Source: Vulcanimicrobiota bacterium
GTDB lineage: Bacteria > Vulcanimicrobiota > Vulcanimicrobiia > Vulcanimicrobiales > Vulcanimicrobiaceae
DNA: 33,365 nucleotides
Direction: 5' to 3'
Assembly (NCBI GenBank): GCA_003135555.1
Contig: PLCF01000054.1
Span: forward strand, 22,058 to 55,422
How positions within the stretch are numbered: position 1 is the first letter of the stretch; each line of letters opens with the position of its first letter. Below the pieces are notes generated by a model that saw nothing but the letters and a program-made list of their open reading frames with translations, was not told where the DNA came from and did not search any database. Shown in pieces: positions 23,607 to 32,487 of the stretch. The position numbers and the translations under genes are program-made.

Positions 23607-23668
23607 CTGGCCGGAGCCGGAGCCCGCGACGCGAACATCCGCGAAGCCCCGGCGACGGCCGCCCGCGA

Positions 23669-26362
23669 CTACGGTGCGTCGTGCGCCGCGACCGTGCGCG
23701 GCGCGAGTTTGGTCTTCGGATCGGCCTTACATTGGACTGCGAACTTTCGGCTTGCGCCGTCGATCGTCACCCCAACGAAGAACGCGTGGGTAGAGAGTGA
23801 CGCCGCCGGAACCGGATTCGACTGATCGTTGACGACTTTGTACGAGAAGCGCAACACCGGCTCAAAGGTGGGGCGTCCCCCGAAGTCGAGTCGAGCCTCG
23901 AACAATTTTCCTGGGACGTACGAGCTCCGATTCTCAGCCACGTTCGTGTCGAATGTCGCCGAGGGCTGAACTCGCACGGACGGAAAGCACCAATTCGAAT
24001 AGGTACCGATGGCCTTGACGTCGAGTTGGTTGGACGCCACCGCTTTCTGATCGAACGCCGTTTGGGTCGCGGGCGCTAGACCGGCCTTGACGTCGAGGTA
24101 GAACGCCTTCTGATCCGCGAGCAGCTCGTAACTGAGCTGGCGATTGGGCGATGCCGCGCACTTCGGCGTGGCCGTCGCATCGCATTTCTTGGGGGCGTTC
24201 GTCCAGGCTGGGCCAGCTGAGAAGGTGAAGACGCCGGAGTTCAGCTTCACCGTCGCACTATCGGAGTCGTTCCGCAGCAGCGTGCGCCCCTCGTCCGCGT
24301 CGGTTACGAGCACGCCTGACTGCCGCGCGAACACCGACGTCGCGATGTTCGAGCGCGTGTGCACGAGCGACACGATCGGGGACGCCGTGCCTGCTCCGAG
24401 CTTCATCGAAAAACTCGCGGCCAGAGCGTTGTAACGCGCCTGCACGTCGTCCCAGGAACGGACGCCCGTCAACGAAAGCTCGACCTGGGGATCCTTGTTC
24501 GAGACTCCGGCCGCGACGCGCTGGTACCCCGCTGTCGCGAAGATCGATTTTGTCCCCGTGAACGAGTCGTATTGGGTGCCGAGCGGATCGTAGCCGGCGT
24601 CGACCGCCCGGTAACCCACGCCTGCGAACGGACGCCAATAAGAACCGGCTTTGTTCACCGTATAATTGACGTCGGTCGGAGCGTAGGTCAGTACGCTGAG
24701 CATATCGCGCGCACCGGTATTGTTGCCGAGGAAACCGTACCGGCCGTAGAGCTGGACCGACCGGTCCGGGGACAAGCGCGCGATCGCACCCACGACCGTG
24801 TTCGCAGTGTGAGCGGTGTCGATTTGATACGGATTGGTGACCTGTGCCGGATCCGTGTTGGCAACGACGTGGGTGACTCCGAGCGCGAAGGGGCCGAAGT
24901 CGTGGTCGGCGTGGATGGCCGAACCGGACGCGCCGGCATCGATGTCGCGGTACCAGGCCAGGCCGACACGCGTATCCAGCGGCGCCATCACCAGCTTCGC
25001 ACCGTAGTTCACGCTCGTGATCGTGCTGAAATCGACCGGTTTGAGATCGACTTGGGCGTCGGCGAACTTCGCGCCGACGCCCTTACGGAACGGCGTCGGC
25101 AACACGTCGAAGATACCGGCATCCAAGGTCTTGAACGAGTCGTCCGGGCATTTGCCTTCACAGCCGACGCTTAACGGCTTGGACGCCAACGACAACGCGC
25201 TTTGCGACGCAGTCTGCAGCAGCGCGCTCGCGGCGCCCGATGCGCTTGCATTCTGCTGCAACCGGGCAAGAATCGATCCGACGTCGAGCTTGTCGACGGA
25301 GAAGCTCGCGCGAACCGCGTTGGGGACGATCGGGATGACCGCAGTCCCGCCGTAGAGGCCGCCGGCGCTCGTCTTCGGCTTCGGACTCGCGGCCGGGGCG
25401 GCGCCCGCCGCCCGCACCGCCCGCGCGCGCGCGCTGGATGCTGCCCCGTCGACAGCGCTACCGCTGTTCCCGGACTGTGTTCCGTCGTCGGCTTGGAAGG
25501 TCCCGCGCGCCCGCTCGCCGCTGGCCTGAGCAATTTGCACGCCCTGGGTGCAGCTCGATGCAGGCGGCTCGCTAGTAGCGAGGTCGCGATCCGAGTACGC
25601 CGTACAGATGTCTACGCTCTGGGCATAGGGCTGCCAGATCGCACCGACGCGCAGGCGCTGGGAAAGCAACGCCCACTGAGCAACCACCCGGCCGCAGAAG
25701 GTTGAGTCGTCGGCGACGGCTTGGCACGTGCCGGCTAGCTCGTCGTCCTTGCCGCCGACGTTCTTATCGCCTTTGGGTCGCACGGCACCGTGGCACAAGG
25801 CACGGTCGGTATCGAAAAACTCGGGGCCGTCAACGAAGCAGTGGCCTTTGAAATTCACGTAGACGATGAACGGACGGGCATCACGCGGGCTGCCATTCGG
25901 ACGCACGACGAAGGCGAAACGGTCCTCCGGCGTGGTGCCGGCCTGGCCCGGGGTAAGAAAGCGCACGCCGTCGGTCGTGCGGTAGCCGGTAAACGCGCCT
26001 CCCGCGCGCGTCGCCATGAAGTCGATCGCGAGGCCGTCCTTGACGACCGATACGCTGGTCGTGACCGCCTTTGTCTGCTGGGATGCGTAGACGATTGACG
26101 GCGTCGGCAGTGGTGGAGCTTTCGATATGCAACCCACTCCCACGCCGTCGCTCCATGTGATCAAGACACTCGCAGCGGGAGCTTGCGCCGGAATGACGCA
26201 AGGGGTCGGAGTCGGGCTAGGCGTCGGAGCCGGATTCGGCGTCGCAGCCATTGCGGGGGGCGTCGCCGCGGCGCTCGGAGCCCGGGCCCCCGCCTGGTAC
26301 GTGCCCAGCGCAAAGATCATCGTCATTGCACTCGCAGCAATGATCGATCCAACGTACTTCAT
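23669..26362 (-). CDS. Secreted ~897-aa protein, probable outer-membrane beta-barrel with an N-terminal CBM9/DOMON-like domain (DUF5916-like, divergent)
   Basis: GGAGG RBS 5 nt before ATG 26362. Sec signal peptide ending AGARA, Pro/Thr linker, Cys-paired N-domain and a long C-terminal run of amphipathic beta strands (NYGAKLV, GYRAVDAGYDPLG). The family call is tentative. Confidence 0.6.
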   Translation of the reverse strand: MKYVGSIIAASAMTMIFALGTYQAGARAPSAAATPPAMAATPNPAPTPSPTPTPCVIPAQAPAASVLITWSDGVGVGCISKAPPLPTPSIVYASQQTKAVTTSVSVVKDGLAIDFMATRAGGAFTGYRTTDGVRFLTPGQAGTTPEDRFAFVVRPNGSPRDARPFIVYVNFKGHCFVDGPEFFDTDRALCHGAVRPKGDKNVGGKDDELAGTCQAVADDSTFCGRVVAQWALLSQRLRVGAIWQPYAQSVDICTAYSDRDLATSEPPASSCTQGVQIAQASGERARGTFQADDGTQSGNSGSAVDGAASSARARAVRAAGAAPAASPKPKTSAGGLYGGTAVIPIVPNAVRASFSVDKLDVGSILARLQQNASASGAASALLQTASQSALSLASKPLSVGCEGKCPDDSFKTLDAGIFDVLPTPFRKGVGAKFADAQVDLKPVDFSTITSVNYGAKLVMAPLDTRVGLAWYRDIDAGASGSAIHADHDFGPFALGVTHVVANTDPAQVTNPYQIDTAHTANTVVGAIARLSPDRSVQLYGRYGFLGNNTGARDMLSVLTYAPTDVNYTVNKAGSYWRPFAGVGYRAVDAGYDPLGTQYDSFTGTKSIFATAGYQRVAAGVSNKDPQVELSLTGVRSWDDVQARYNALAASFSMKLGAGTASPIVSLVHTRSNIATSVFARQSGVLVTDADEGRTLLRNDSDSATVKLNSGVFTFSAGPAWTNAPKKCDATATPKCAASPNRQLSYELLADQKAFYLDVKAGLAPATQTAFDQKAVASNQLDVKAIGTYSNWCFPSVRVQPSATFDTNVAENRSSYVPGKLFEARLDFGGRPTFEPVLRFSYKVVNDQSNPVPAASLSTHAFFVGVTIDGASRKFAVQCKADPKTKLAPRTVAAHDAP

Positions 26363-26394
26363 GCTCACCTCCGTCAGGAACGAGCGATGATCGA

Positions 26395-26430
26395 ATCATC
26401 ATCGACGGCGGTGACAAGACGGTTACAAGG
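26395..26430 (-). promoter_or_regulatory. Putative SARP-type operator/promoter of the 897-aa gene
   Basis: CGGTGACAAGA/CGGTTACAAGG direct repeats at 26409 and 26420 (11-bp period). On the minus strand they are followed after 8 bp by GATGAT (26400-26395). Confidence 0.6.
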
Positions 26431-26458
26431 TGCGCCGCGCTAGGTGATGCGCCGCAGG

Positions 26459-27658
26459 CTAGCGATGCCGCTCGAGCCGAGAATGAACTCGCCCATCGAG
26501 CGACGCATAAGCGAGTGACCCTGCAAGGTTGATTTGGACGAACGGGTAGAACGGAGACATCGATTGTCGACAGGGCCGCCATACCAGCGTAGGATGGAGC
26601 GTGTAGCGCCGGTCCGGAATCACCAAAACATCCAAATTGTGCGTCTGGCTTGCATACCGGGCCAGCGCGGCTTTGGCGAAGTCGTACATCTGAGATGGCC
26701 CAGGAACGTCGGACCGCGGGGCCTGCAAGCTCAGGAACCGCCCATCGGCGCACCCGACGCGGACGTTAGCTACAGGCTCGTGACCTCGCCGCAGCATCAC
26801 GAGGTAGTAAGGCTCCGAGCTTCCGAGTTGACCGTTACCGGGCCGCTCGGCGATCGTGTAGACATCCTCGGGGCGTGCTTCCACACCAGCAACCGCTGCC
26901 GCCAAGGGTGAACCGGGATCGCGAAGACCGTACCGCTCGATGCCGGCCATCGCTGCCACGCACGCTTCAGGCTTGCTGAGCACGGAGCCAGCCGGTACGA
27001 CCTGCGGCGGAACGTCGCTGATGGATCCACGGAGCGGGCCCGAGGCTTGAGCCCCCCGACGGATCGATACGAACGTCCCTCGGCGCGACGGCGAACGCCA
27101 GTAAAAGTTCAGCCACTCATACATGGTGACGAATGTATTTCCGCTTCCGTAGTCGGTGCTGCACCGGGGTGGAAAAACGCCGCAGGTATCGTCGATTTGG
27201 TGCGGCCTTGCGATAACGCGTCCGGATTCCGGACATGGGAACCGCGGATTCTGCGGCTCAGGATCGTGGATGAAAAACCCCATGACGCCGCTGGATGCGC
27301 TGCTCGGATCACCGTCGTAGGAAACACCGGTGACCGCGATCCAGTGTCCGCCATCGAGCACCAGAGCGGGTACGGCGGGTCCGAGCTCAGCAATCCCGCC
27401 GGAAATGCGGAGAACCCCGTCTCGCGCAGTGAGATCGCTGCAAACACCGAAATCGGCTCCGCCGGATGCCGGATTCAAATTCAGGCAAAGTTCCTCGGGA
27501 GTCGTGTCGGGGTGCTTGATACTCGCCTGTCGGCGCATGGTGCGCTGGTCACCGAGGTCACGTCCCAAAGACCCAAGCACCATTTGCGCGACGGCCTGGC
27601 CGCAGAAGTCGTAACCGTCTTGCTGATGATACGGCGCACCGGAGTAAACGACGGGCAT
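26459..27658 (-). CDS. Stand-alone C39-like/papain-fold cysteine protease with an unknown C-terminal domain (399 aa)
   Basis: GGGGAG RBS, ATG 27658. PYHQQDGYDFCGQAVAQMVL (Gln13/Cys19), GGHWIAVTG (His), FIHDP (Asp). No signal peptide, no ABC domain. Confidence 0.75.
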   Translation of the reverse strand: MPVVYSGAPYHQQDGYDFCGQAVAQMVLGSLGRDLGDQRTMRRQASIKHPDTTPEELCLNLNPASGGADFGVCSDLTARDGVLRISGGIAELGPAVPALVLDGGHWIAVTGVSYDGDPSSASSGVMGFFIHDPEPQNPRFPCPESGRVIARPHQIDDTCGVFPPRCSTDYGSGNTFVTMYEWLNFYWRSPSRRGTFVSIRRGAQASGPLRGSISDVPPQVVPAGSVLSKPEACVAAMAGIERYGLRDPGSPLAAAVAGVEARPEDVYTIAERPGNGQLGSSEPYYLVMLRRGHEPVANVRVGCADGRFLSLQAPRSDVPGPSQMYDFAKAALARYASQTHNLDVLVIPDRRYTLHPTLVWRPCRQSMSPFYPFVQINLAGSLAYASLDGRVHSRLERHR

Positions 27659-27771
27659 ATCTCCCCCAATCCGACGAATGTGAGCGGGCAATAAAAACGG
27701 TGATCGAACGGCCGGCGTCGTAGAACGCCCCACCTGCGACAAGCCTCCACCGGGCGGGAGCGATCGAGATC

Positions 27772-30588
27772 ATGGTCGACTCGCGTACTCAAAACTTCGC
27801 GAGGTCCCTCGCCGCTGCGGCGGTGGATGTCCTGGTGCTCGAGGCGCCGCCGGGATATGGGAAATCGTCGCTCGCCCGCGTGTATGCGTCGGCACTTGGA
27901 CCGGCCTACGAATGCTGGCTTTCGGCGGAAAGCGATGAGGCGTCCAGGCTGATCCTCGACGCGCTCGTCGGGACCGAGGGATTGCGTGGCGCGCGATTCG
28001 CCGTCGATCGGCTGGCGCGCCGCGGCGGCAGCGCCGCTGCGCACGCCAGGGAAACCCTTCGTCGGGAGTGGGTGTCCGCCGCGACCGAAGATGTTCTCGT
28101 GCTTCACGACTTCTCCGGAGCGCTCGCGACGCGCGCCGGCGCAGACCTGCTGGGCGAACTTCTCGTAACGAAGCCCGCCAAGCGCCGCCTGGTCCTGTCG
28201 ATCCGCAAACCGTTGCCTCCCGGTACGGTAGGAAATCTCCCGATCCGCGGCACGACGACGCTCACGCGCAGTGACCTCGCACTGACGCTGCCGGAAGTCG
28301 GCGACATCGCGGGACGCGCCGGACTCCCGCGCCCGAAGGCTGCCGAGATCTACTCCCTGACACGCGGTTGGCCCCTGGTAACCCGCTTGCTCGTGCAACA
28401 ACTGCAGGCCGACTCCCAGGACCCCGTACTCGATGCCGTGCGCACGCTGCCCCACGACACGATGCTGGCATTCGCGGCGCATCGATTGATCGCGCAGTTG
28501 GACGACCGTTTGCGCGACACGCTCGCCGTGGCCTCGTTCTTTGCCGAGGCCCATTACCTCGATCTTATTCGCATCCTCGGTCCCGAGTGCGACGACGCGG
28601 TGTTCGCTCGAATGTCGGCGCTGCCGTTCGTGTCCCAGGAAGGGGACGGCGTCGCGGTGCACTGCGAGGTCGCGCGACTCTTGCGCGACCGTTTTGCGTC
28701 CATCGTCGAGCCGCTGTACGAGCGAACGTTGGACGTCTTGTGCCGAGCAGGTCGTCACCTCGTCGCCGCGCGCATGGCGCTCGACCGTGGCGATGGGCTG
28801 CGAGCAGCCGAAGTCATCGACAGCGCGCCACCGTTTACCACCCTTCCGGTTCCGCTCGGTGAATATGAAAGAATCATCGAACGGGTGGAACCGCGCCTCA
28901 TCACACGCTTTCCGAACCTTTGGATCGCGACGATCCCATATCGCTCGTTCTCGATCGACCCCGCGACATACATCCGCGAAGCGGAAACGGTTTATTTCTG
29001 CTTGCCGGCAGGAACCGATCCCGATCAGCGAGCGGCCGCGTTGATGATGCTTGCCTCGGCGTATGCGAATGTCGGTCGGTCCCGCGACGCCGAGGTGCTG
29101 CTCGCCGAGGCGTTCGAAGGATTTGCAAGCGCCGATGGCTCCCCACGTGCGTCGCTGCTCAACTTTTTCGCATCGCTGCGTGGCATCGAAGGGCGATTCA
29201 CCGAAGCGCGTGGCCTTGCGGAGCAGGCCGCCCGCGCCTCTCGTGACACCTTCGGTCAGAATCAAACGTTGCACTACATCGATGCGCACGAGGCCGCGTT
29301 TCGCGGCCGCCAAGATAGGCTGGTAGTCATTCTGGATGAGCTCATGCACCGGCGGGCTCGTGCCGATCCGCCGCTCTATCTGGCGTACGTCGCAGAAAAT
29401 GGGGCGTTCTTCTCGTGGGCCAATGGCGACGACGCGGCGTTCGAGCGGTATCAGACGGCCTTCGAGGACTCGATTACTCCGGCGATAGAGCACGCGCTGG
29501 CCACGCTGATCGATGCCGCGCGCGGGCGCGCTGCGCCGTCGGATGACGAGCGTGTGTGGCCCTTGATCGCGGCATTCGCAAATCTGTATTGGATGGCAAA
29601 CGCGCCGACCCATGAGGTCGCGGTTCGGGCCGCGAGCGCCGCCGTCCGAGCCGCCGACCAGCGGGGGGCACCCTATACTCAGACACTCGCACACGTCGCG
29701 CTGTACGTGCTCGATGAGGCCACGCGCGCCCAGCAGGCTGCGGCACTGATGGAGATCGTGCGCAACGTTGAGAGCGAGGAGTTGCGCCAAGCCGTCCGGG
29801 GAGTGATCGAAGGCGGCCCGGCGGGGATGCTGGAGCCTTTCGTTCGGCGACGCGTGCGGCGGCAACGGACACGTTCGGGCCCGCGCCTCGTGGTGGAGCT
29901 GCTGGCCGGCCGCGTCACGGTCGATGGCGCGGCGGCACGGTTGCGGGAAAAGGAGTTCGAGCTCGTAGCCTTGTTGGCTTCGACACGTGGTGCGCTTTCG
30001 CGCGAGCAGATCGGCGAGGCGCTGTGGGAACATCTCGATCCCGATGAGTGGTCGAATAACCTCAAGGTCACGCTCTATCGCGTCCGAAAGGCGCTCACGA
30101 CGCGCGACGTCACGGTCACGGAGGGAAGTCGCTACCGACTGGCTCCAAGCATCGACGTGGACCTGCGGCGAGGCGAAGCGCTCCTTCGCGATCTCGGCCC
30201 GACCATTCGTGACGAAGCCGCGCGAGCGACGTTGGCCGACGTATTGCGGTCGTTTCAGGACGGTGTCCTGGAACGCTACGAGCGCTTCGGATGGTCGCAT
30301 ACCCTGGTTGCGCGCTTGAACGACCTGGCTTGCGGCTGCGGCCTGTCCTTGGCGTCGGACGCGCTCGAGCGCGACGCGGTCGATGATGCGGTCGAGTATG
30401 CGTCGCGTGTCCGTGATCTCGACCCGCTCAATGAAAAGGCCTGCGGGATCACCATCCGCGCGCTGAAGACGCGCGGGGCCGACGACGCGGCCCGGCGCGA
30501 GTTCCAGCGCTATGCGGAGGCGCTTGAACGCGAGTTCGCGGCCGTGCCGTCTGCGGCGCTCTTGGAACTGGTAGTCCATGGCGCGTGA
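27772..30588 (+). CDS. MalT-like STAND ATPase transcriptional activator with C-terminal SARP module (OmpR-type wHTH + BTAD)
   Basis: Walker A EAPPGYGKS, Walker B LVLHDF, TRGWP, helical/TPR middle, wHTH (LREKEFELVALL...SREQIGEALW...LKVTLYRVRKAL) and BTAD (DPLNEKAC...REFAAVPS). Confidence 0.88.
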   Translation: MVDSRTQNFARSLAAAAVDVLVLEAPPGYGKSSLARVYASALGPAYECWLSAESDEASRLILDALVGTEGLRGARFAVDRLARRGGSAAAHARETLRREWVSAATEDVLVLHDFSGALATRAGADLLGELLVTKPAKRRLVLSIRKPLPPGTVGNLPIRGTTTLTRSDLALTLPEVGDIAGRAGLPRPKAAEIYSLTRGWPLVTRLLVQQLQADSQDPVLDAVRTLPHDTMLAFAAHRLIAQLDDRLRDTLAVASFFAEAHYLDLIRILGPECDDAVFARMSALPFVSQEGDGVAVHCEVARLLRDRFASIVEPLYERTLDVLCRAGRHLVAARMALDRGDGLRAAEVIDSAPPFTTLPVPLGEYERIIERVEPRLITRFPNLWIATIPYRSFSIDPATYIREAETVYFCLPAGTDPDQRAAALMMLASAYANVGRSRDAEVLLAEAFEGFASADGSPRASLLNFFASLRGIEGRFTEARGLAEQAARASRDTFGQNQTLHYIDAHEAAFRGRQDRLVVILDELMHRRARADPPLYLAYVAENGAFFSWANGDDAAFERYQTAFEDSITPAIEHALATLIDAARGRAAPSDDERVWPLIAAFANLYWMANAPTHEVAVRAASAAVRAADQRGAPYTQTLAHVALYVLDEATRAQQAAALMEIVRNVESEELRQAVRGVIEGGPAGMLEPFVRRRVRRQRTRSGPRLVVELLAGRVTVDGAAARLREKEFELVALLASTRGALSREQIGEALWEHLDPDEWSNNLKVTLYRVRKALTTRDVTVTEGSRYRLAPSIDVDLRRGEALLRDLGPTIRDEAARATLADVLRSFQDGVLERYERFGWSHTLVARLNDLACGCGLSLASDALERDAVDDAVEYASRVRDLDPLNEKACGITIRALKTRGADDAARREFQRYAEALEREFAAVPSAALLELVVHGA

Positions 30589-30594
30589 CCGGTT

Positions 30595-31257
30595 CTACTC
30601 CTCACCGTTGCCGGAGCCGTCGTCAATCACAAGCCCCATCGGACCAAGCTCGCCGCCGCCATCTTCGGGATCGGGCGGAGGAGGTAGGATGAGCGTGACG
30701 TCGCCGTTCGCCCTGATGGGCGTGAGATCGTCGATCTGAATCCGGTCAGGGTCTACGTTGTCGATGAACATGATTCGGAACGGCGCATCGGGCTCGGAGC
30801 GGTCCCGGAAGGCGACGTAGGTGAACTCGCCCATGTCCGCCTCTTGCAAGCCGGTTCGTCCCGTTTTCTTTTCGAGCCGCGCCTTCATAGAGACAATCGG
30901 TCGGGTGCCTTGCTTCAGGACGAGCGTGACAATGGAGAACGTGCTGTCGAAGCGGGGCTCGAGGATGACGATGTTCGCCTCGAACGTGAACGGTCCGCGA
31001 AAGTCCACCGTGCCCCCGCCGTCCGTTAGGTCAGCGACGACAGACGCACGCTCGAACACTCCCGTGACCGGCTCTTTCGGGCCGGGATCCTCGTCGACGA
31101 CGTGCACGACTAGCAGGTTCGCCGTGGCCTCAGCAAAGCAGAAGAGGCGTCTGCCAAAATAGGGAATCGCCGGGGCGAAGGCGACCGCGTCGTTGCCCAG
31201 CGGAACAAACTTTGCAAAGCCGATCGACGCGTTCGAGGTGGACGTAATGCTAGGCAA
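30595..31257 (-). CDS. Hypothetical 220-aa protein, beta-rich with a Pro/Gly/acidic C-terminal tail
   Basis: GAGGAG RBS 7 nt before TTG 31257, which overlaps the last codons of the radical SAM gene. Ends PPPPDPEDGGGELGPMGLVIDDGSGNGEE. Confidence 0.7.
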   Translation of the reverse strand: MPSITSTSNASIGFAKFVPLGNDAVAFAPAIPYFGRRLFCFAEATANLLVVHVVDEDPGPKEPVTGVFERASVVADLTDGGGTVDFRGPFTFEANIVILEPRFDSTFSIVTLVLKQGTRPIVSMKARLEKKTGRTGLQEADMGEFTYVAFRDRSEPDAPFRIMFIDNVDPDRIQIDDLTPIRANGDVTLILPPPPDPEDGGGELGPMGLVIDDGSGNGEE

Positions 31258-32314
31258 GGCTCTTCTCCTCGTAGGATGCAGCTTTGAGTGATCGTGGCGC
31301 GTCCACGTGCTTGGCTTGGAGTTGCACGAATTGCTCAGCGACGATTGAAGCAACCTCGGCTCCGTATCGTCCGACGATCTCCATTGCGCGATCGTCTCGT
31401 TGCAGGCGGGTGCAGGCGCTGCAGATGGAAGCCGATTGGGGCAAGGTGTATCCTGGGACATATCGTGCGACGAACGCTGCGACCCCGGCGGGTCCGGACA
31501 CGTGCAGCCACATCTTCAGCAATTCATTCGGGCTCGAGTCCAGGACGCTATCGAGAGTGCGTTCCGAGACCGAACCGATGCCCAAATGTGGCAGCTGTTC
31601 TGAAGGGAACCCGCAGCACGCGATCAGCTTTTGATCGGACGTGACCGAGATGACGTCCAGAACTTGGGCACAACGGCCGAGCCCACGCGAACCAACGTCG
31701 TCAAGGTACGCATCGTGAGAAAGGTCCGCCAGCCCGCGTCCTCCAGCGTCCACTATCCAGGGATCGCGTGAGAGATGCACCGACCCTGACGCGACGAGAT
31801 CGGCCAACGATTCGAAGAGAACCGCATCGTCGAACGTCGATTGATCGCAAGCCTCTATGGAAATGCGCGTGAGGATCCCGCTCTCAGCCGCGGCGCGCGC
31901 TGCGGCGATCACACGATCCACGCTAACGAAACGTTGGTGAAATGATCCGGTCGACAGCATCATCTCATCGAGACCGCGTTCGCGGATCGCCGCCACGCGG
32001 TCGCGCGCAACGCGTGGGCTGACCGCCCAGTAACCGTTGGTAATGACGCGCGTGATAAATCCTAGCCGGGATGCGTGACCAACTAGCTCGTCGAGGTCGC
32101 GGCCAAGCAGGAAGCACTCGCCTCCGCTAAACCCAATCCGTTCCAGTGACGGAATGCGGGTTGCCTCGTCGATTAATCGATGAATTCGCTCGACGGGGAT
32201 GGCGTCGATTTCTCGCGGCCCAGCGCCGACCGAGCAATGATCGCAAGCCGCCGGGCAACGGCGGGTCGTGAGGATTGATAGTATGCGAGGCCGCACGAAC
32301 ATCGCGGTTGGCAT
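31250..32314 (-). CDS. Radical SAM protein of YydG/EpeE (peptide epimerase)-like type with a twitch-like auxiliary cluster domain
   Basis: RCPAACDHC, FSGGECFL, TNGYWA, STGSFHQRFV, GRC, IACCG, SICSAC. Start at 32314 or 32302. Radical SAM call is firm; the subfamily is less certain. Confidence 0.85.
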   Translation of the reverse strand: MPTAMFVRPRILSILTTRRCPAACDHCSVGAGPREIDAIPVERIHRLIDEATRIPSLERIGFSGGECFLLGRDLDELVGHASRLGFITRVITNGYWAVSPRVARDRVAAIRERGLDEMMLSTGSFHQRFVSVDRVIAAARAAAESGILTRISIEACDQSTFDDAVLFESLADLVASGSVHLSRDPWIVDAGGRGLADLSHDAYLDDVGSRGLGRCAQVLDVISVTSDQKLIACCGFPSEQLPHLGIGSVSERTLDSVLDSSPNELLKMWLHVSGPAGVAAFVARYVPGYTLPQSASICSACTRLQRDDRAMEIVGRYGAEVASIVAEQFVQLQAKHVDAPRSLKAASYEEKSLA

Positions 32315-32385
32315 CCTCTCTGATAGGCACGAGCGAGCTAACGCTTATCTTGCTACTAAGAGCGACTACGCCTCCCTCTGGAGCG

Positions 32386-32421
32386 ATCTTTTCACGGCTC
32401 GGTTAATAGCCGGTGACACAA
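32386..32421 (-). promoter_or_regulatory. Putative SARP-type operator/promoter of the radical SAM operon
   Basis: CGGTTAA (32400) and CGGTGAC (32411), 11-bp period. On the minus strand they are followed after 8 bp by AAAGAT (32391-32386). Confidence 0.55.
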
Positions 32422-32451
32422 GACGGCCGCCCGACACCAGTCGGGCGGCCG
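32415..32451 (-). terminator. Probable intrinsic terminator of the AAA-R3H gene
   Basis: Perfect 12-bp stem CGGCCGCCCGAC-ACCA-GTCGGGCGGCCG (32424-32451), followed on the minus strand by TCTTGTGT. Confidence 0.7.
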
Positions 32452-32487
32452 CTCGGAAGGCCCTCACGTCCGACAGGCGTCGCCGTT

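Follow-up and report, generated by a model that had tools for sequence, protein, structure and literature searches.

A radical SAM enzyme, a Gly-Pro-tailed partner protein, a cysteine protease and a STAND-SARP regulator recur together in Eremiobacterota

The locus and its conserved genes

We studied a stretch of 33,365 nucleotides from a Vulcanimicrobiota bacterium (GenBank assembly GCA_003135555.1, contig PLCF01000054.1, positions 22,058 to 55,422; hereafter, the window). Between an R3H-domain gene and a PilZ-tmk-holB group, the window carries a block of five genes, which encode a radical S-adenosylmethionine (SAM) enzyme related to EpeE (YydG), a 220-amino-acid protein (protein A), a STAND-SARP regulator, a C39-like cysteine protease, and an 897-amino-acid protein with a barrel-like region (the barrel protein). 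An earlier description of this DNA, made from the letters alone (the sequence-only reading), had proposed that all five genes belong to one pathway that modifies, cleaves, and exports or displays a protein-sized substrate. It placed the five open reading frames (ORFs) correctly and was right about the two housekeeping-type flanking genes; it missed a Gly-Pro-hydrophobic-Gly motif in protein A and two genes, B and U, that usually accompany the others and are absent from this block. As described below, four of the five genes form a conserved unit, and this cassette is likely a new peptide- or protein-modification pathway in uncultured bacteria. The features of the block are as follows (positions are those of the window).

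31250-32314, minus strand: radical SAM gene, 354 amino acids, EpeE/YydG-like enzyme
30595-31257, minus strand: gene for protein A, 220 amino acids, the proposed substrate or precursor
30595-30657, minus strand: tail of A (residues 201-220), GG/EL-GPMG-LVIDDGSGNGEE, with GPMG at 30634-30645 (the slash marks a putative cut)
27772-30588, plus strand: STAND-SARP gene, 938 amino acids, convergent with the gene for A
26459-27658, minus strand: protease gene, 399 amino acids, a stand-alone C39-like (papain-fold) cysteine protease
23669-26362, minus strand: gene for the barrel protein, 897 amino acids, with a signal-peptide-like N terminus and a C-terminal region like an outer-membrane beta-barrel
32400-32417, minus strand: predicted operator of the radical SAM-A operon, GTCACCG-N4-TTAACCG, with a -10-like AAAGAT (32386-32391) after a gap of 8 bp
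26409-26426, minus strand: predicted operator of the barrel gene, GTAACCG-N4-GTCACCG, with a -10-like GATGAT (26395-26400) after a gap of 8 bp
23654-23665, plus strand: left copy of a 12-bp boundary direct repeat (exact 12-mer)
32422-32433, plus strand: right copy of the repeat (exact 12-mer), a hairpin arm directly after the R3H gene

The gene for A is coupled to the radical SAM gene: its TTG start codon, which has GAGGAG upstream, overlaps the radical SAM stop codon.

Among Eremiobacterota relatives, we found 33 nonredundant loci with a full-length (long) A; 23 of these, in which A lies directly downstream of the radical SAM gene and the downstream DNA extends for 5.5 kb or more, are referred to as full loci. 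(The loci are kin and not independent samples.) The protease is encoded in all 23 full loci, the STAND-SARP regulator in 21, B in 19, and U in 15; the barrel protein is encoded in none. The conserved unit is therefore four genes (radical SAM, A, protease, and STAND-SARP), not five: the expected co-occurrence of the five genes holds for these four and fails for the barrel, and the regulator deserves to be called dedicated. In the recurrent order, the radical SAM gene and A are met by a convergent STAND-SARP gene, which is followed by B (where present, in the forward direction) and by the protease in either orientation. Among 43 genomes of the same genus, 24 have a match to the radical SAM enzyme, 18 to the protease, 3 to the barrel protein, and 1 to A (in a single-sequence search), and all 18 of the protease-positive genomes also carry a radical SAM match. 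Across 19 loci, the mean pairwise identity is 59% for the radical SAM enzyme, 52% for the STAND-SARP protein, 25% for the protease, and 23% for A, yet G-P-x-G is invariant in A.

Some loci depart from this arrangement. L026 (G011:C14; we number loci L, genomes G, and contigs C) encodes A and the protease behind a strong operator, with no radical SAM or STAND gene in 19.5 kb; a radical SAM-A-protease locus lies elsewhere in the same genome, which suggests action in trans. Frameshifted copies, due to decay or sequencing error, are seen for the radical SAM, STAND, and protease genes in L022, for STAND in L031, and for the barrel gene in L077.

The block did not arise by chimeric assembly: single contigs cover ~22.9-32.6 kb of the window in three of four DNA runs; the fourth run gave short pieces only. 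The G+C content at third codon positions is 0.66-0.78 within the block and 0.83-0.90 in the flanks. In 15 of 29 relatives' PilZ loci (14 of 28 excluding G032), the R3H gene ends just 6-91 bp from PilZ, so the block is an accessory insertion. The cassette occupies the same R3H/PilZ site in L018, L020, and L169. More generally, the PilZ/R3H junction (the equivalent of window positions 23607-32487) is an insertion hotspot, and about 10 relatives have another long gene there, chemoreceptor-like by eye. The sequence-only reading also described a direct repeat that bounds the block. The exact 12-mer is there, and none of 40 shuffles gave an equally good pair. However, a target-site duplication is unproven, since the 12-mer occurs 8 times in the genome (the median for permuted 12-mers is ~7) and in 1 of the 29 PilZ loci of relatives, without an adjacent R3H gene. 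Furthermore, no joint that skips the cassette was found among the four DNA runs.

The radical SAM enzyme and the tail of protein A

The enzyme matches Radical_SAM in Pfam and has the CxxxCxxC motif at C20/C24/C27. We rejected the possibility that it is a YydG equivalog, as it scores 68.1 bits against the YydG/EpeE model TIGR04078, whose curated cutoff is 300. The best sequence-profile match for the family is to EpeE (E = 1e-25, full length), which is the sole solved relative that we found for it. EpeE is also the top structural match (VIA) for the predicted model (pLDDT 84), with Z = 24.9 and a root mean square deviation of 3.9 over 307 aligned residues; the next match is PqqE, at Z = 17.6. 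The sequence identity to EpeE is 18%. Four cysteines (C215, C233, C298, and C301) align with C206, C222, C289, and C292 of EpeE, which we take to be ligands of the auxiliary cluster. A fifth, C234 in a CCG motif, is equivalent to C223 of EpeE (the chain of the C223A mutant reads PCA at the CC motif). These five and the three of the radical SAM motif are invariant in 18 of 18 aligned sequences. In EpeE, the accessible parts of two reports describe C223 as the proposed donor of a hydrogen atom during epimerization (PMC13012085, PMC8326336). Thus, the sequence traits of an EpeE-like epimerase (a radical SAM core, extended twitch cysteines, and an equivalent of the hydrogen-donor cysteine) are present, and the profile match and the fold support the earlier view of a YydG-like enzyme with a protein-sized partner. 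A predicted complex of the enzyme with A scored 0.01 (the mark is 0.32), which has no bearing for or against an interaction.

Proteins that lie in the slot after the radical SAM gene, when read by position, have a shared ending: all 14 that we aligned, including the window's, end in G-P-[MIVF]-G. Across a larger alignment of 34 A proteins, which are 12-28% identical to the window's A, the invariant residues are the start Met, G205, P206, and G208. From 40 tails, we obtained the consensus G-[GSA]-Φ-x-G-P-Φ-G-x3-4-P, where Φ is hydrophobic. The tails are Gly-rich, and 29 of the 40 have GG, GS, or GA at positions -4/-3, that is, two residues before the motif; V, M, or I is at -2 in 29, and 37 have the terminal Pro. 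In the window's A, a putative double-glycine cut would follow G202.

We also counted the motif in a way that did not use the profile of A (loci with less than 750 nt of flank were dropped). It is in the last 22 residues of a downstream ORF for 39 of the 48 radical SAM enzymes that score at least 480 bits, for 0 of 7 at 400-480 bits, and for 0 of 75 below 400 bits; the background is 29 of 18,411 ORFs. Among the nine misses, one has a multicore precursor that ends in GPML and one has neither form of the motif. The other seven belong to a subgroup with a GP-[M/G/V] motif in the upstream gene (read for six; L065 was seen in DNA only). Because the motif follows the enzyme across unrelated carriers, it is likely the recognition site of the radical SAM enzyme.

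The rest of A could not be related to known families. None of 34 A proteins matched Pfam, including its nitrile hydratase and Nif11 leader families, and the window's A has no signal peptide. Its model is confident over residues 11-120, which form a beta-rich domain (pLDDT ~90), and not over the tail (below 50 for residues 200-212). Foldseek searches of the PDB and of viral libraries had no match at E ≤ 0.001, just 1 of 48,161 chains reached Z ≥ 2 (Z = 2.3), and a fold search of the Atlas gave no usable match. These results do not show a new fold because the model rests on 34 divergent sequences. We also considered an internal Cys of A as a cross-link donor and rejected it, as it is not invariant in the 34 sequences.

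The motif takes another form in L070 and L071, whose radical SAM enzymes are 39% identical to the window's. Here, the enzyme is flanked by multicore precursors, in which 26 x-x-G-P-[MFIL]-x cores follow acidic, DEDA-like spacers. The neighbors are a divergent caspase-family protease gene and genes for MFS/HlyD exporters. Both loci are at a MATE/U/sugar-ABC site that holds a radical SAM-A-protease locus in L032 and, with U undetected, in L025. The repeated FDEDATGTR-x-x-G-P-Φ units (L070:6543-8767 and L071:9257-11866, in G017 and G012) apparently represent an undescribed multicore cluster for a peptide of the ribosomally synthesized, post-translationally modified class (RiPP).

Two further versions were seen. 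In a sister cassette (L065-L069, L174, and L176), a divergent STAND gene and a ~170-amino-acid upstream gene with a near-terminal GP motif are followed by the radical SAM gene, an operator-like site, and variable cargo, in that order; the cargo includes B-like, Vps62/Toxin_10-like, weakly HBL-like, and caspase-family genes. In a short-partner version (L062, L063, L064, L171, L181, and L183), a protein of ~120-150 amino acids that ends in S-G-P-[IV]-G-x4-P is encoded between the radical SAM and STAND genes; neither a protease nor an operator was found in the DNA examined for these six loci.

Beyond these loci, a wide EpeE-like family with a CCGL[TH] motif (L100-L158) is found in Chloroflexota, Acidobacteriota, Verrucomicrobiota, Actinomycetota, Bacillus, and Photorhabdus. 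Distant relatives of the enzyme (28-43% identity, many phyla) often adjoin large precursors whose cores are rich in Val/Ala/Asn, and in some cases a methyltransferase as well (judged by eye in part of 38 loci), which fits a family of peptide maturases. In L073 (G001:C293), a more distant enzyme (30%) is followed, as judged by eye, by a short precursor rich in Cys and Ser and by a gene that resembles a cyclodehydratase, which is a different RiPP class.

The protease, the regulator, and the variable cargo

The window's protease has the catalytic set Q13, C19, H105, and D132, followed by an unnamed C-terminal domain. In an alignment of 116 members, Q is conserved in 106, C in 109, H in 115, and D or N in 104. 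Peptidase_C39_2 (PF13529) matches 39 of the 116 weakly; the window's protein itself is unmatched. Together with the family matches in relatives, the catalytic set upholds the assignment to a C39-like protease. The protease has 343 representatives at E ≤ 0.001. C39-type cysteine proteases of RiPP pathways cut after GG, GA, or GS, according to part of a published account (PMC10885120). A search of plasmids gave no match.

The STAND-SARP protein has an N-terminal P-loop (APPGYGKS), a TPR-like middle, and a C-terminal OmpR-type winged helix with BTAD. Trans_reg_C (PF00486) and BTAD (PF03704) match above the Pfam cutoff, and TPR matches below it. A second STAND-SARP paralog in the window's genome (G000:C98:9035-11830, 29% identity) has no cassette genes or operator within ~8 kb.

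The sequence-only reading had noticed that two promoters of the block share an upstream motif. This motif is real, lies at the radical SAM and barrel promoters, and is retained in relatives, where the consensus GTAACCG-N4-GTAACCG, followed by 8 bp and xAxxxT, is found in upstream regions that include those of radical SAM genes. SARP sites are heptamer repeats that overlap the -35 element and lie 8 bp from the -10 element, as described in sections of PMC10972967 and PMC11301090; the predicted operator has this layout, with heptamer direct repeats at an 11-bp period, 8 bp before the -10-like element. We built a matrix from 29 sites at other loci. It gave scores of at least 12 bits in 29 of 37 upstream regions, as against 0 of 37 coding controls. 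Most of the 37 loci were in the training set; of the held-out long-A loci, 8 of 9 were positive. Across the 7.13 million positions of the window's genome, the site at the barrel promoter ranks first (21.2 bits) and the site at the radical SAM promoter ranks fourth (15.4 bits). Scans for sigma-70 promoters and terminators gave results at chance level.

The operator is likewise found in relatives before B, before the protease gene where this is inverted, and before unrelated cargo genes. Depending on the locus, the cargo comprises secreted proteins, caspase-family genes, and weakly HBL-like and Vps62/Toxin_10-like genes. The barrel protein has a Cys-containing N-terminal part besides its barrel-like region (residues 335-880), whose nearest models in the Atlas are DUF5916-type and other outer-membrane proteins, at TM scores of 0.55-0.65 from a low-confidence model (pLDDT 0.41). 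It is encoded in none of 158 nonredundant radical SAM loci. Three of the 43 same-genus genomes have full-length homologs, in neighborhoods without the cassette. One homolog, in L077, has the operator directly upstream and does not adjoin a cassette. The barrel protein looks like a co-regulated passenger of the regulon, and not like a conserved member of the pathway.

The accessory genes B and U encode proteins of ~210 and ~100 amino acids, respectively, with U upstream of the radical SAM gene. In the window's genome, which is 84% complete, B was not found and U is ~70 kb away on the same contig (G000:C66:124005-124334). B has no match in Pfam (0 of 11), the PDB, or NCBIfam (0 of 2), and a comparison of profiles led us to reject homology between A and B (probability 0.7%). 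The B family (L034:8454-9074 and relatives) is operator-led and has distant homologs in several phyla, all of the named ones being hypothetical proteins. U has ~50% mean column identity and no family match; its weak likeness to a beta unit of A (profile probability 19%) is a lead only.

A proposed pathway and its alternatives

We propose that the cassette is a SARP-activated, RiPP-like pathway that modifies and cuts protein A, and we give the full model about an even chance. The STAND-SARP protein would bind the heptamer pair, which lies 8 bp upstream of the -10 sequence, and activate the radical SAM-A operon; usually B or the protease would be switched on as well, plus cargo captured by the operator, which here would be the barrel gene. 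The radical SAM enzyme would then abstract the C-alpha hydrogen from a residue in the Φ-x-G-P-Φ-G tail of A, most likely a hydrophobic one (Met207 in the window), and return of a hydrogen from C234 on the opposite face would yield a D-residue. We are fairly confident that the tail is the target of the enzyme, and the reaction is probably epimerization. The protease would cut after G-[G/S/A], so that the ~180-amino-acid beta domain of A would serve as a large, folded leader and the product would be a peptide of 10-11 residues that ends in Pro (18 residues in the window). For this release of the tail, we lean slightly towards yes. As the cassette has no exporter, the product would probably act within the cell or upon lysis.

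Several observations weigh against this proposal. Two genomes of another genus carry members of the protease family with no radical SAM, A, or STAND genes within ~9 kb, and A does not co-diverge with the protease beyond what it does with the radical SAM enzyme (partial rho 0.12, 80/999 permutations). No C39-like protease was found in the DNA examined for the seven loci with an upstream GP partner or for the six short-partner loci, which do have STAND (one of the six has a flank of only 2.3 kb), so cleavage is not universal. The predicted cut site lacks GG, GS, or GA in 11 of 40 tails, and the window's A ends in an acidic extension instead of the usual Pro. The matrix scan found no operator before the window's protease. 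D210 of EpeE has no invariant counterpart in the radical SAM family, and the multicore pair L070/L071 and the A-tail enzymes fall on separate branches (in a quick tree that was not completed).

One alternative is that A remains intact. The radical SAM enzyme might mark the tail so that whole A acts as, for example, a ligand or inhibitor of the STAND sensor, in a feedback loop on the variable cargo, while the protease acts on another target or merely turns A over. STAND, the radical SAM enzyme, and a GP-bearing partner are the widest shared unit, which includes the groups where no protease was found; the lack of an exporter, the well-predicted beta domain of A, and the variation in cargo between loci also favor such a switch. 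However, all 23 long-A loci encode the protease, a double-glycine-like site is present in 29 of 40 tails, the same motif is the repeated core of classic precursors, and the partial correlation of A with STAND is weak (0.19, 96/999). We consider it somewhat unlikely that A acts whole. A cytoplasmic switch in which the STAND-SARP protein senses epimerized A, or the peptide released from it, as its ligand, with feedback onto interchangeable cargo (secreted proteins, barrels, proteases, or toxin-like genes), is an unlikely scenario in our judgment. It is more doubtful still that the enzyme has the same target and another chemistry: a thioether from the semi-conserved Cys of A (in Y-x-G-x-x-L-x-C) to the tail, a modification of Pro, or radical cleavage of the backbone at Gly. 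Cys40 is common in A, the Pro and the flanking Gly are invariant and the hydrophobic residue is not, and epimerases and sactisynthases share C-alpha hydrogen abstraction (PMC8326336, in the part available). Yet several A proteins have another residue in place of this Cys, the multicore precursors lack it, the equivalent of EpeE C223 is invariant, and EpeE is clearly the top structural match. The original idea of a five-gene pathway with export or display via the beta-barrel is very unlikely. Its support is that the barrel promoter has the best operator match in the genome and that the homolog in L077 is operator-led as well; against it, the barrel is missing from all 158 radical SAM loci, its full-length homologs have no cassette nearby, A has no signal peptide, no inner-membrane exporter is present, and in L019, L030, and L179 the equivalent place behind the operator is filled by unrelated genes.

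The modify-and-cut pathway that we prefer works like an epipeptide or proteusin pathway, yet it belongs to neither. It shares with epeXEPAB of Bacillus subtilis (EpeE/YydG, PDB 8ai1-8ai6) the enzyme fold, the radical SAM motif, the extended-twitch cysteines, the equivalent of C223, and hydrophobic residues as likely targets. However, the epe substrate is a 49-amino-acid peptide, whereas the partner here is a folded protein of 190-220 amino acids with a Gly-Pro tail, and in place of a membrane protease and an ABC transporter, the cassette has a soluble C39-like protease, no ABC transporter, and a dedicated STAND-SARP regulator. As the sequence-only reading had noted, the block contains no gene for a short precursor, a membrane protease, or an ABC transporter; nor do these, or an EpeX-type precursor, lie beside the radical SAM gene in relatives, whose loci hold A, STAND, B, the protease, and U. 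Proteusins (with PoyD/OspD/EreD epimerases, a long leader that ends in GG, and the stand-alone protease PoyH) would share with it the large leader, double-glycine-like site, C-terminal core, radical SAM epimerase, and cysteine protease, but A lacks the nitrile hydratase or Nif11 match in Pfam, its model is beta-rich, and its core would be just ~10 residues. As in SARP activators (AfsR, ActII-ORF4, and PimR) and MalT-like STAND regulators, we see a winged helix and BTAD, with heptamer repeats at an 11-bp period, 8 bp from the -10 element; unlike in those, the SARP module is C-terminal, behind an NTPase and TPR region, the host is an Eremiobacterota bacterium, and the heptamer is GTAACCG. Similarly, the protease shares the Q-C-H-D/N set and a candidate GG/GS/GA site in its partner with C39 peptidases (the PCAT domains of LahT and ComA; Peptidase_C39_2), but it has no transporter fusion, a conserved PPPH-x3-D-x-C insert, and the unnamed C-terminal domain. 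Among anti-phage models in PADLOC, the N-terminal core of the radical SAM enzyme (residues 16-96) matches viperin only partially, and the other six proteins scanned have no match. In line with the claim that the system is undescribed, we found no description of it in the main texts of the open-access literature, although a published atlas of RiPPs or radical SAM enzymes could list the clade. The available part of a paper on RiPPs of Eremiobacterota (PMC9259500) covers other pathways.

Overall, the cassette represents a diverged, EpeE-like clade. Its candidate recognition motif, Φ-x-G-P-Φ-G, is sharply defined and recurs in dozens of presumed natural substrates that are otherwise dissimilar and take two candidate forms, the folded carrier and the multicore precursor. 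In addition, an operator and a regulon can be predicted for a STAND-SARP activator of a phylum that is largely uncultured. Protein A is a candidate ligand for this class of STAND sensors, whose inducers are, to our knowledge, mostly unknown. If the motif is indeed epimerized, it would serve as a portable tag of six residues by which a D-amino acid could be introduced into the tail of a protein, and it would offer a route between peptide RiPPs and the modification of proteins.

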